Assembly (NCBI GenBank): GCA_963804995.1 | Contig: CAWDSK010000006.1 | Span: 224,001 to 288,000, forward strand | Direction of reading: 5' to 3' | Length of the DNA stretch: 64,000 nucleotides | From: an uncultured Acidobacteriota bacterium | GTDB lineage: Bacteria > Acidobacteriota > Terriglobia > UBA7540 | Shown: positions 10,831 to 14,607 of the stretch, one piece after another | How positions within the stretch are numbered: the stretch's first letter is position 1 | Layout: each line of letters opens with the position of its first letter | Translations under genes and position numbers: made by a program | The notes under the pieces: model-generated | Database searches by the model: none | Seen by the model: only the letters and a program-made list of their open reading frames with translations | What the model was told of the DNA's origin: nothing

Positions 10831-11334
10831 GTGAAATCAGGGGCAACAAATCGGCGGCGAGCGAGTCAGGCCGAAGGGACGCTGACCCGTTCGAGGATCA
10901 GGGCCTGGGTTCTCGCGATAGCGCTCACTTCCCTGCTCGCTCCGGCCGTGCGTGCAGAGCAAACGAAGCCTCTCCCCGCGCTGGAAGGGACTTTGCTGGC
11001 GACGGCCGGCAAGTGTCCCCTGTTGAAGATGCAGGACCGGCAGGTGCCGCTCGCCGCCACAACTCCCTACCTGCTTCAGACCCTTCAGGATAAGCGCCTC
11101 GACGGTTTCCAGATACGCGTGGAAGGAACCCCGCAGCCCGACGGCTCGTTCGAGGTTGCGTGGCTTTTTACCGTCCACAAAGGCAAGCTTTTTCGCGTGC
11201 GCTACTTCTGCGCGGTCTGCAATCTCGTCGGGCTCGGGCCGGGACTCTGCGTCTGTTGCCAGCAACCCACGGAGCTTCAAGAAATCCCTGTGGACAATAC
11301 GGACAAGTACATGCGCCCGGCTTCCCAGCCTTAG
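10831..11334 (+). CDS. Exported hypothetical protein with a C-terminal CxxC...CxCC metal-binding motif
   Basis: YFCAVCNL..GLCVCCQQ; hydrophobic signal-like segment. Confidence 0.7.
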   Translation: MKSGATNRRRASQAEGTLTRSRIRAWVLAIALTSLLAPAVRAEQTKPLPALEGTLLATAGKCPLLKMQDRQVPLAATTPYLLQTLQDKRLDGFQIRVEGTPQPDGSFEVAWLFTVHKGKLFRVRYFCAVCNLVGLGPGLCVCCQQPTELQEIPVDNTDKYMRPASQP

Positions 11335-11401
11335 TTGACACCAATCACCACCCAGTGTTACAAAAGAAAGACCGCTGATTCTCAGCGCCACGCGCCAATA
11401 T

Positions 11402-11478
11402 GGTGGGTGTAGCTCAGCTGGTAGAGCGCCAGACTGTGGCTCTGGACGTTGCGGGTTCGAATCCCGTCACCCACCCCA
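11402..11478 (+). tRNA. tRNA-His (GTG)
   Basis: Cloverleaf GTGGGTG/CACCCAC, anticodon GTG, GGTTCGAATCC, G-1, encoded CCA; TTGACA at 11335. Confidence 0.95.
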
Positions 11479-11929
11479 TCTAACTCGAGCAGATAACGCA
11501 GCGCGGCCGAGCCGCAACCCAAACGAAATCCTCTGCGTCCTCCGTGCCTCTCAAGCTTTAACACAGAGTACGCCCTCCGCTGGCGCATCTCTGAAACCGC
11601 GATGCCGTGTCAAGCCGATTTTTTGAATTTCTTAATCGCCTTTGACAAACTTCCCCCTTCGACTTCAGAATGGCCTGCAGCCGGTGAAGCGGAGGCGGGC
11701 TCTGCTGGCGAGCAACCCGCTGAGGAATAGCCGGTCGGAGGCTGATGGAAACGACGCCGGGGCGGCCTGCGGTCGCCCCCCTCCCAAGCTCTGGGCACAG
11801 CTTCCCCATGCCTGAAAAACGCGCCGGACCCCATCGGCAAAGTGGCGGGTTGCCGACTTCGCCGTCGGCTGCCATTCTGTACGTATTATCTTATAGAATT
11901 ATTCCAAGTTATAGTCGTTCCTCCTTTAT

Positions 11930-12165
11930 GTAGAGCCCGGGGGGCGGGGAGGGTTGGCTCCCCGCCGCCTGCCGGGGATGAAGCACGGCCCCGTGGGCGT
12001 TGGGTTCTTGCTCTTGCCATGCGAGTTTGCTGAGTCGGTTCGGTCCCTTTCATCTCTACGGGCTAGCCAGGTTGTCCTGGTCCCCATGAGGTTGTTCGGG
12101 AGCAGGTCCCTATCAGAGCGCGGTCTTGGTGTACCTAGCGCCAGCACGGGCTTCCTGCTCCAGTA
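11930..12165 (-). ncRNA. Putative seekRNA/bridge RNA of the IS1111 element (ends approximate)
   Basis: Stem-loop at 12099-12161 with 8-nt and 10-nt matches to the two flanks of the insertion site. Confidence 0.7.
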
Positions 12166-13213
12166 CGCCGACTTGGCGGCCCCAACGGTCTTCCCGATAA
12201 GGGCAGCCGTGCTTCAAAACTCCATACGCACAACGCGCCAAGGAGTGCGCGATGGCGGCCTTGGCCACGTTGGGTTTCTTGCTGCGGCGCAGGCGGTGGT
12301 AGCGCCGCGCGAAAGGATGGGGGTATGGAATCGCGACATGGGCGGCGGTGACGAAGGCCCAGCGCAGCCAGCGCGATCCCTGGCGGGTGATGGGACCCGA
12401 CACCTTCACTTCCCCGCTGTCGTAAAAGCTGGAGACGAGCCCCGTAGCGTTGGCCAAGGCCTTGGCGGAACGAAACCGCTCGATCGTGCCGATCTCACTC
12501 CAAATCACCGGGGACAGGATGGGGCCGATGCTGGGGATTGTGCGCAGCAGCGCCAACTCGGGGAATTGTCCGTCCACCGCCTGCAAGTACTTCTCACTGA
12601 TTCCGATCTCCTCCTCCAGGAACTGCAGCAGGCGTTGGATTTGAGGGATGCTTTCGCCCAAGGGCATCGGCAAGGTCTGTTCCGCCAGCCACTTCTCCCC
12701 GGCCGCTCCGAACGGGTCGGTCCCCGGCGCCTGCAAGCCATGCATCCCCAGCAAGCTTTGCAGGTGATTCTTGGCTTTGGTGCGCAGCAGGGCCAACCAG
12801 CAGCGCTGGCGTGCGCGCAGACGCAGGGCGCGAATCTCCGGCGGCGGAAACCACGCCTCCGGCAGTGGATCCAGATGGTGCGCGGCGAGCTTGCGCGCCA
12901 GCCGCTCGGCATCTAAACGATCATTCTTCTGCCGGCGGTTGCTGTCGATCCCCGCCGTGTGCACCCAGTGCGCGCGCCCTCGCCACCCCGCCTCTTCCAG
13001 CACGCTCATGGCAAAGTAGCCTGCCGTGCTCACCTCCAGGCCGATCTCGGCGTCGGGAGGAAGTTCCGTCAACATCTCCAGCCACTCCTCCCGCGTGTTG
13101 GCGATCGACTTCCGTGCCTTAATCTCTCCGTGATCAAGCTCCACCACCTGGCAACGACGCTTGTGAACATCCACTCCCACCGGCGTTCCAATGGGCGTTA
13201 TACTCTTCTTCAT
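12113..13213 (-). CDS. IS110-family transposase (DEDD RuvC + Tnp domain)
   Basis: GVDVHK, GLE, KNDRLDA, IPSIGP, YDSG; GAGGAG RBS before ATG 13213. Confidence 0.93.
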   Translation of the reverse strand: MKKSITPIGTPVGVDVHKRRCQVVELDHGEIKARKSIANTREEWLEMLTELPPDAEIGLEVSTAGYFAMSVLEEAGWRGRAHWVHTAGIDSNRRQKNDRLDAERLARKLAAHHLDPLPEAWFPPPEIRALRLRARQRCWLALLRTKAKNHLQSLLGMHGLQAPGTDPFGAAGEKWLAEQTLPMPLGESIPQIQRLLQFLEEEIGISEKYLQAVDGQFPELALLRTIPSIGPILSPVIWSEIGTIERFRSAKALANATGLVSSFYDSGEVKVSGPITRQGSRWLRWAFVTAAHVAIPYPHPFARRYHRLRRSKKPNVAKAAIAHSLARCAYGVLKHGCPYREDRWGRQVGVLEQEARAGARYTKTAL

Positions 13214-13464
13214 CGCTTTGTCTCCTCGATGCAAAACTCTCGGTCTGAACCCGAGGGCCCGCTAAACTGGACCACCTCCAGTTTAGCGGCACCCGAGGAG
13301 GCATCGCCGCTTTCATAACATCAGAGCGCAGCTCTGCGATTCACGTGTCTGACCATGCCCGACGGTTTGAGTCAGGAATTCCAACCCGCAAGAAAACGAG
13401 GGCGCACGTCCCAAGATTCGCAAATTGGGAGCCTGAGCCAAAAACATTCACCCAGAATCGGTGC

Positions 13465-14607
13465 TCAATACCCGCGGCGCTTATCCACCACGTTGAGCAT
13501 GGGCAGACCGTTCACATACCGGCGCACGTTTTCAGCGAAGAGCTCCGTGGTTCGACCTTCCACCTTCGGAGACCAACCGGAAGTGTGACACGTGATGATG
13601 ATGTTCGGAGCCGTCCACAACTCATCGTCCGGCGGCAAGGGTTCCTTATAGGCCACGTCCAGTCCAGCCCCCGCGATCCAACCCTCTTTGAGCGCGCGCA
13701 CCAGCGCCGGCGTGTGCACAACCTGGCCCCGCGACATGTTGATGAAGTACGCCGACTTCTTCATGGCCCGGAAGACGGATTCATTCAGCATGCCTTCGGA
13801 AAGCGACGTGTGGGGGGCGGCGCACATCAGGATGTCCACGCGCGAAGCCATCTCCTTAAGCCCGTCGAGCGAGTGCAGCTCCGCCACAAAATGCGGCTTG
13901 GGAATCGGTTTGGGATCCACGGCCAAGATCTTCATATCGAAGCCATAGTGGGCGCGGTAAGCCGTCATCGCGCCGATCCCGCCCAAACCCACCATGCCCA
14001 ACGTCATGCCGCTGATCTCCGTCAGGTCCTGGAGCTGGTTCCACTCGTGGTGCTGTGTCTGGATGGCGTAGCGCGGAATGCCGTGCGCCAGTGACAGCAT
14101 CAAGGCGATGGCGGTTTCGGATATCACGGGCGCAAAGATGCGCTGCATATTGGTCAGCACGACGGGGCTATCTATGAGCTCCGGCCACATGATCTCTTCG
14201 ACGCCCGCCGCTCCCCATTGAATCCAGCGCAGGTGCTTGGCAGCGGCAAAATCTTCGCGGGTGAAATCGCCGAACAAGGCGTGCGCGTCAGCAAGTTCGC
14301 TCCGAAAAGCCTCCTTCGAAAGGGCTTCCTTCAACTCAATTCCTGAGGATAGTGCCCGGATACGCTGGGAATAAGGGTCGGGAAGCTTGTCCATGGTCAC
14401 GATCTTCAACCGCTCCACAGCGGCTCCCTTGCCGGGCTCGACAAGGGGATAAGACTCCATCGTGAGCGGAAACGGCGGATCGAGTGCAGCAGCGGGATTC
14501 GCGGCAGCGAGGGGAACTCCAGCCAGAGTGGTGCCTAGCGCGGCGCCAGTTGATCCGGCGGCGATGTTATGCAAAAACTCTCTGCGGGAAACGGGGTCGA
14601 GTGGCAT
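13465..14607 (-). CDS. D-2-hydroxyacid dehydrogenase with Tat-like signal
   Basis: SRREFL, GMVGLGGIG, INMSRG, AGLDV, TCHTS. Confidence 0.9.
   Translation of the reverse strand: MPLDPVSRREFLHNIAAGSTGAALGTTLAGVPLAAANPAAALDPPFPLTMESYPLVEPGKGAAVERLKIVTMDKLPDPYSQRIRALSSGIELKEALSKEAFRSELADAHALFGDFTREDFAAAKHLRWIQWGAAGVEEIMWPELIDSPVVLTNMQRIFAPVISETAIALMLSLAHGIPRYAIQTQHHEWNQLQDLTEISGMTLGMVGLGGIGAMTAYRAHYGFDMKILAVDPKPIPKPHFVAELHSLDGLKEMASRVDILMCAAPHTSLSEGMLNESVFRAMKKSAYFINMSRGQVVHTPALVRALKEGWIAGAGLDVAYKEPLPPDDELWTAPNIIITCHTSGWSPKVEGRTTELFAENVRRYVNGLPMLNVVDKRRGY

Follow-up and report, generated by a model that had tools for sequence, protein, structure and literature searches.

A probable target-binding loop of an IS1111-type seek/bridge RNA within the last recombinase codons of an insertion sequence from an uncultured Acidobacteriota bacterium

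The seekRNAs of the IS1111 elements ISEc11, ISPa11, ISKpn4 and ISPst6 contain two target matches, with the complement of the top strand located 5' of the bottom-strand match, and the elements themselves have subterminal repeats and a long right end (Siddiquee et al. 2024, PMC11187229). Natural retargeting through arm changes and an ISPa11-like insertion into an intergenic repeat are described in the same text, which also reports junction promoters for the family and, for ISEc11, an RNA processed from a longer transcript with no other promoter seen (PMC11187229). In the bridge RNAs of IS621 and ISCro4, the two guides of the target loop, left and right, share the core, and a donor match follows downstream (Durrant et al. 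2024, PMC11208160). The last 50 bp of the CDS were included in the RNA search of Durrant et al., and its models may therefore contain overlaps that are not described there (PMC11208160). A guide RNA that overlaps the 3' coding region of its own gene and is cut from the mRNA is known from the TnpB omega/reRNA of IS200/IS605 (10.64898/2026.09.09.750255, PMC10278001, PMC4615843).

The element described here was found on the minus strand of the window, the whole stretch of 64,000 nucleotides that was analyzed from an uncultured Acidobacteriota bacterium. It resembles the IS1111 elements in its subterminal repeats, long right end, two target matches and their order, natural retargeting through arm changes and insertion into an intergenic repeat, and differs from them in the placement of the RNA, which the text of Siddiquee et al. 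locates downstream of tnp, whereas here the target loop except for its 3' arms lies inside the CDS (PMC11187229). Compared with IS621, whose RNA lies in the left non-coding end and which has a 2-nt core and short inverted repeats, the element has the same fold, but a 3' RNA location, a 4-bp core, a reversed guide order, an inner hairpin and coding guides (PMC11208160). TnpB is unlike it in protein and reaction, and in TnpB the scaffold overlaps the gene while the spacer lies downstream of the CDS, whereas here the programmable bases are codons (10.64898/2026.09.09.750255, PMC10278001). In the literature searched, there was no report of IS110/IS1111 programmable guides in a CDS, although figures, subscription journals and some supplements could hold one. 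The targeting mechanism is of a known kind, and the coding position of the guides is a variant feature. The parts of the element, all on the minus strand, are as follows; the repeats and the TTGACA were read from the sequence.

11586-13322, IS110-family, IS1111-type insertion sequence (IS) of 1,737 bp including both 4-bp cores, with four genome copies that have identical ends and different outer flanks
12113-13213, DEDD recombinase gene, 366 aa, Pfam PF01548 and PF02371, NCBIfam NF033542
13319-13329, left core and left target flank (7 nt)
11579-11589, right core and right target flank (7 nt)
13300-13315, left subterminal inverted repeat of 16 nt, kept in relatives
11592-11606, right subterminal inverted repeat of 15 nt with one gap relative to the left one, kept in relatives
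11608-11613, outward-facing TTGACA at the right end, a candidate -35 box of perfect sequence for a circle-junction promoter with a weak partner -10

The recombinase scored above the cut-off for both Pfam families and reached 189 bits against a cut-off of 140 for NF033542. Residues D15, E60, D98, D101, S266 and G267 showed at least 90% conservation, up to invariance, across 110 sequences, and the protein has the domain composition of the IS110 family, a DEDD RuvC-like domain and a Transposase_20 domain with the conserved Ser-Gly. The fold predicted from the 110-sequence alignment matched IS621 and ISCro4 (Foldseek E 1.4e-15, probability 1.00; structures 8WT6-9 and 9T56), with both alignable only to residue 343, and residues 346-366 extend beyond the fold with pLDDT <50 in the predicted structure. 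The CDS ends with EARAGARYTKTAL, and its stop codon TGA at 12115-12113 is located within the left arm, so that the overlap of the C terminus with a guide and the position of the stop codon inside it, as claimed in the original prediction, were borne out.

The assignment to the IS1111 type was based on the end structure and the guide order. The subterminal repeats lie 7 nt inside the left end (core counted) and 2 nt before the right core, and such short terminal extensions are an IS1111 trait. The left end is ~105 bp and the right end ~525 bp long, a long 3' non-coding end being another IS1111 trait, and the right ends of relatives were 290 to 621 bp long with a median of 528 (66 loci). In the source genome, all four copies of the IS were inserted at the site predicted by the arms, in the same orientation and with a core at each end; one of them departs from the site at the two outermost left positions. 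The empty 16-nt site was present four times in the genome, each time with a single core and within a short intergenic repeat, against a chance expectation of ~0.004 under uniform base use. A specific site entered in a fixed orientation, cores flanking the element on either side and only one core in the empty site are characteristic of the IS110 family.

Several observations were made on the copies and their surroundings. The copy at G000 C6:1008219-1009956 was 98% identical and had a one-base insertion leading to a frameshift, with intact guides. The copy at G000 C3:1379538-1382378 was split in its candidate donor-binding region by a 1.1-kb element bounded by terminal inverted repeats, which we take to resemble the IS630 type, and an empty target site was located ~280 bp upstream of this interrupted copy. 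The target at window positions 13319-13350 and the empty sites on G000 C3 and C9 were part of a short palindromic intergenic repeat; in relatives, too, the targets lie at the base of hairpins, with stems that mirror the left flank. A tandem duplication of the right end, as if a second insertion or excision had left an extra end, was seen in loci L001 and L046. A tRNA-His gene at 11403-11478 on the plus strand, ~100 bp from the right end of the IS and not its insertion target, was the sole Rfam match over 11300-13500.

A second IS in the same genome, with four copies (G000 C6:541001, C6:1341244, C6:2030593 and C3:1259616), encodes a protein with 56% identity and has almost identical ends and a different target site. 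The scaffold of its loop is unchanged, and both arms differ so as to fit its own site. The second IS also has the same donor match, and cross-mobilization of the two elements is possible.

Relatives were collected from 13 genome and 80 metagenome loci (93 fetched), from which six without the 3' end of the gene and L013 without a usable match were dropped; the 86 kept and the eight copies of the two elements in the source genome gave 94 parsed loci. A stem-loop corresponding to 12099-12161 on the minus strand was found in 94 of 94, and at the locus itself the stem-loop, the arm matches and the in-arm stop codon of the original prediction were recovered base for base. The loop has a three-way form with a small inner hairpin at 12122-12135, and consists of the following parts, listed on the minus strand together with neighboring features.

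12167-12180, weak candidate for a small 5' hairpin within the CDS, with 77% of cells paired
12154-12161, 5' arm of the outer stem, which is coding in each of the 94 loci; seven pairs counted, five of them changed on both sides, 94% of cells paired
12148-12150, inner stem, 5' arm, whose third base is the first base of codon 12148-12146
12136-12147, loop segment holding the right-arm match 12138-12145
12122-12135, inner hairpin between the two guides, 100% of cells paired, with secondary stops in relatives
12111-12121, left-target guide and core match, with the TGA at 12115-12113 inside; mutual information peaks on the diagonal for guide positions 3-6
12099-12110, inner and outer stems, 3' arms, non-coding
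12050-12096, candidate donor-binding region with a conserved A-rich hexamer (12096-12091), a variable hairpin and a near-invariant donor match (12057-12050) that would pair with the donor

The single-sequence fold gave the 8+3-bp stem at -30.4 kcal/mol (z -2.89), with 4 of 200 shuffles equally good, and the two arms paired partly with each other; in the RNAalifold consensus of 50 sequences, the same stems formed and the arms were open. Overall, 92% of stem cells were paired, compared to 31-55% in slid controls, and 10 of 17 pairs changed on both sides. The third pair of the inner stem was intact in all 50 rows, as U-A in 31 and as C-G in 19. These compensatory changes, together with G-U pairs, point to a function at the RNA level, as judged from the aligned sequences.

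The left arm 12112-12121 matches 13320-13329 at 10 of 10 positions, and the right arm 12138-12145 (minus strand) matches 11579-11586 (plus strand) at 8 of 8. The arms follow the IS1111 order, with the complement of the top strand preceding the bottom-strand match. Among relatives, the left arm agreed with its own flank at 4.88 of 7 positions compared to 3.43 after shuffling (50 distinct pairs), and the right arm at 5.91 of 7 compared to 5.03 (32 distinct pairs, best of two registers); in each case none of 10,000 shuffles was as high. Within the clade that reads through into the loop, the values were 4.91 versus 3.75 for the left arm (23 pairs) and 5.62 versus 4.75 for the right arm (16 pairs). 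The right guide has two registers one base apart, and the flank follows the register; the guide-flank register of three rows was set by hand after the left-end pattern had been tightened.

The phylogenetic side of the covariation was assessed in a quick, midpoint-rooted tree of 63 rows from the 79 of 94 loci with full in-frame bodies, in which 15 loci, including L091, were omitted and reference IS1111 proteins were absent. Four diagnostic characters were concordant in 51 of 53, 46 of 51, 39 of 41 and 40 of 40 rows of this tree, in which kin are not independent. Phylogenetically independent pairs numbered one to six on the starred branches, none of them in the opposite direction, and no sign test was significant. 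Guide and flank disagreed in L016, L017, L023 and the group L010/L092/L093.

The check proposed with the original prediction, a comparison of guide arms with flanks among copies and relatives, thus revealed covariation, and together with the four copies at the predicted site and the second IS as a natural contrast it supported the claim of a target-guide loop. For the 10-nt left arm, the match itself held at full length, but its use as a guide over all 10 bases did not: across relatives the five core-adjacent bases of the left flank agreed with the arm (0.70-0.98), while positions -7 and -6 did not (0.30 and 0.24). Two of the 10 left-arm bases are thus likely to match by coincidence, and approximately eight act as a guide.

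Three details of the guides and flanks were noted separately. In L017 and L023, the right flanks were two bases shorter than the guide, which hints at crossover slippage around the core. The sister rows L016 and L018 had near-identical proteins (branch lengths 0.012 and 0.009) and wholly different guides. The left flank of L016 fits the other guide type, which could reflect recombination-based retargeting at the 3' end of the gene or a chimeric assembly.

Since it is present in all 94 loci, its stems compensate and its arms track the flanks, the loop very likely binds the target. Whether the arms might instead act at the DNA level, or be relics of target capture with the working guide elsewhere in the ~520-bp right end, was also considered. 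The long right end does contain other conserved blocks, but the compensatory and G-U pairs indicate RNA, the arms track the flanks, and their order is that of the tested IS1111 seekRNAs (PMC11187229), and we regard this explanation as very improbable. The likely role of 12099-12161 is that of the target-binding loop in a seek/bridge RNA arranged in the known IS1111 order.

The donor-match motif was found 40-50 nt downstream of the loop in 67 of 70 distinct elements and equaled the right-end/core junction in 63 of 67 right ends; the donor itself is nearly invariant. The possible donor match that had been pointed out near 12051-12057 is a plausible candidate for the donor guide.

The extent of coding sequence within the loop varied among the 94 loci: all of them have a coding outer stem, and the CDS covers one complete guide or more in 56 and both guides in 35. 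An RNA from a non-coding end, the trait of known members, was therefore not what was found here; this trait is a description and not a mechanistic requirement. Numbered from the inner stem, the stop codon was at -4 in 23 loci, +2 in 10, +7 in 5, +17 in 5, +21 in 16, +35 in 34 including this IS, and +38 in 1, where the stops at +17 and +21 are TAA codons in the inner hairpin. Different lineages read the loop in all three frames, and the same classes were seen by eye among 121 proteins. With the guides located in the last codons, relatives with other targets make other protein tails, and the original suggestion that retargeting recodes the tail is seen in nature, with 16 distinct tails (last 12 residues) among the 34 loci sharing the +35 stop.

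In the 24 distinct sequences of the read-through clade, drawn from 33 loci that combine the C-G pair with a stop at +35, pN/pS was 0.93 in the last 13 codons compared to 0.21 in the last 100 body codons, a tail value from only 13 codons and pairwise counts among kin that is confounded by RNA constraint. Variation in the tail was even over the codon positions (8, 10 and 10), compared to 39, 27 and 103 in the body. A Gln-to-Pro replacement that kept a compensated stem was found in one subgroup, and the stop position changed at least five times among 26 rows of the clade. The TGA-bearing motif persists in 45 of the 46 distinct elements that stop elsewhere, so it is held by the core match and not by termination; where it was lost, in L028 and L029, a neighboring stop was used instead. 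The stop codon does not appear to limit retargeting.

A functional, target-matched peptide, in which the same bases co-program protein and guide, would be consistent with the 16 tails that vary with the target and with several codons that are invariant in the clade. The invariant codons, however, are stem and hairpin bases, relatives without a tail or with a tail in another frame use the same targets, and the tail has a pN/pS near 1, is predicted with low confidence and probably disordered, and has been repeatedly truncated; of all the explanations considered, this one was given the least credence. With three frames read, seven stop positions, the pN/pS of 0.93 and pLDDT <50 beyond the fold, the tail looks like a passenger. 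To judge from the comparison of sequences, the recoded tail is under no detectable protein-level constraint, and the overlap is likely a by-product of stop-codon loss. Taken together, it is quite probable that 12099-12161 combines the target-binding loop of an IS1111-type seek/bridge RNA with the last 16 recombinase codons, and that the tail is a neutral passenger.

The length of the tail may still be limited by selection, as suggested by two patterns: 12 of 12 distinct third-frame elements, mostly from one clade, kept a stop in the hairpin loop compared to 1 of 59 others, and none of the 94 loci read beyond +38. Selection for translation up to the stem was not supported, as linker stops occurred in 0 of 319 in-frame triplets and in only 3 of 616 out-of-frame triplets, which makes the comparison uninformative.

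The likely origin of the tail was traced through elements with the +2 stop, which were scattered through the tree and included a row adjoining the read-through clade (SH-aLRT 100 for the clade); the direction of change rests on this scatter in the quick, midpoint-rooted tree. Close protein relatives (73-82% identity) end at the same short position. The short-tail TGA begins with the third base of the inner stem, and codon 12148-12146 is TGA in short-tailed relatives and CGT here. All distinct clade members in this frame had the C-G pair and an Arg codon there, once replaced by Gln. In 9 of 10 elements with the +2 stop, the next in-frame stop was at +35. The silent peptide GSHRSTKTVP of two of them was identical, letter for letter, to the translated tail of L003, and the tail sequence thus likely existed as RNA before it was translated. 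Other elements read through by TGG (L091) or, as their protein ends suggest, by codons for Cys and Gly (P0027/P0028 and P0096).

In the proposed course of events, a compensatory change of the inner stem from U-A to C-G would turn the short-tail TGA into an Arg codon, and reading would then extend by 11 codons and end at the TGA of the core-matching guide, which is the next stop in frame. The resulting peptide would be dictated by the RNA and, lying beyond the folded domain, would likely be tolerated and not used.

Upstream of the loop, synonymous change was almost nil over 11 codons in the region of the possible 5' hairpin (pS 0.003 versus 0.309), and the freeze spans ~14 codons upstream of the stem, with 3 third-position alleles compared to ~14 expected. 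The folding energy of this hairpin was not clearly beyond control windows (-11.5 versus -10.1, sd 3.8). The frozen synonymous sites suggest that the RNA or a processing signal reaches further 5' than 12099-12161. For its production, the steps typical of the family would be circle formation, transcription from the junction promoter and cutting of the RNA from the longer transcript, after which the arms would pair with both target strands. With the RNA 5' end within the CDS, making the guide RNA would truncate the message. A consensus scan for an internal RNA promoter near the loop found none.

Such a conflict could be exploited for control, each transcript becoming either mRNA or guide RNA, with cutting or binding of the loop removing or blocking the stop codon and the recombinase loading or stalling on its own message in cis, which would throttle synthesis and tie protein to guide supply. 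The coding outer stem in all 94 loci, the frozen synonymous sites, a stop codon always within the loop region and the TnpB guide RNA made from its own mRNA (PMC10278001) are compatible with this explanation. The stop nevertheless roams over 42 nt and three frames, and the stop-free linker is uninformative; regulatory use of the overlap was considered unlikely, though not negligible, and the loop with a passenger tail remained the preferred interpretation.

Among the 10 metatranscriptome runs listed, four showed small shares (0.05-0.09) at 80% likeness, with contigs derived from relatives. RNA contigs of two studies corresponded to 11961-12141 and 11967-12159, near the predicted RNA span and with scattered ends; they indicate presence in an RNA library only, showing neither RNA ends nor levels, and their depth cannot rank the parts of the gene.

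In the right end, within window positions 11642-11735 on the plus strand, a sigma-70-like promoter (10 of 12) was noted, directed into the IS and antisense to the gene. A conserved motif of ~55 nt directly after the promoter was shared by 46 of the 67 relatives that have a right end, and was matched by many RNA contigs with unlike flanks in all four runs compared. Weak matches were found in 5 of 150 other genomes, three of them beside other transposase-like frames as seen by eye. The motif had no Rfam match, and a search of the right-end motif against plasmids gave no match. It may represent a small RNA module common to different IS families.

Seek/bridge RNAs have been mined as products of non-coding ends, and searches based on intergenic sequence would miss or truncate a target loop of the kind found here. 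Codon optimization or 3' tagging of the gene in its native setting would destroy or shift targeting. The clade provides ~20 natural guide variants on near-identical proteins, and the pair of elements with nearly identical ends in this genome is material for cross-loading tests. The way in which the transposase message is cut to yield IS1111 guide RNAs becomes testable, as a cut at the 5' end of the guide RNA would here leave the message without a stop codon. With the overlap likely a by-product of stop loss and the tail under no detectable constraint at the protein level, the arrangement is less surprising than the original prediction implied. The locus shows natural dual coding in a clean form: a change in an RNA stem rewrites the protein end, and the states before and after are both extant. 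This dual coding is practically relevant but most likely incidental.
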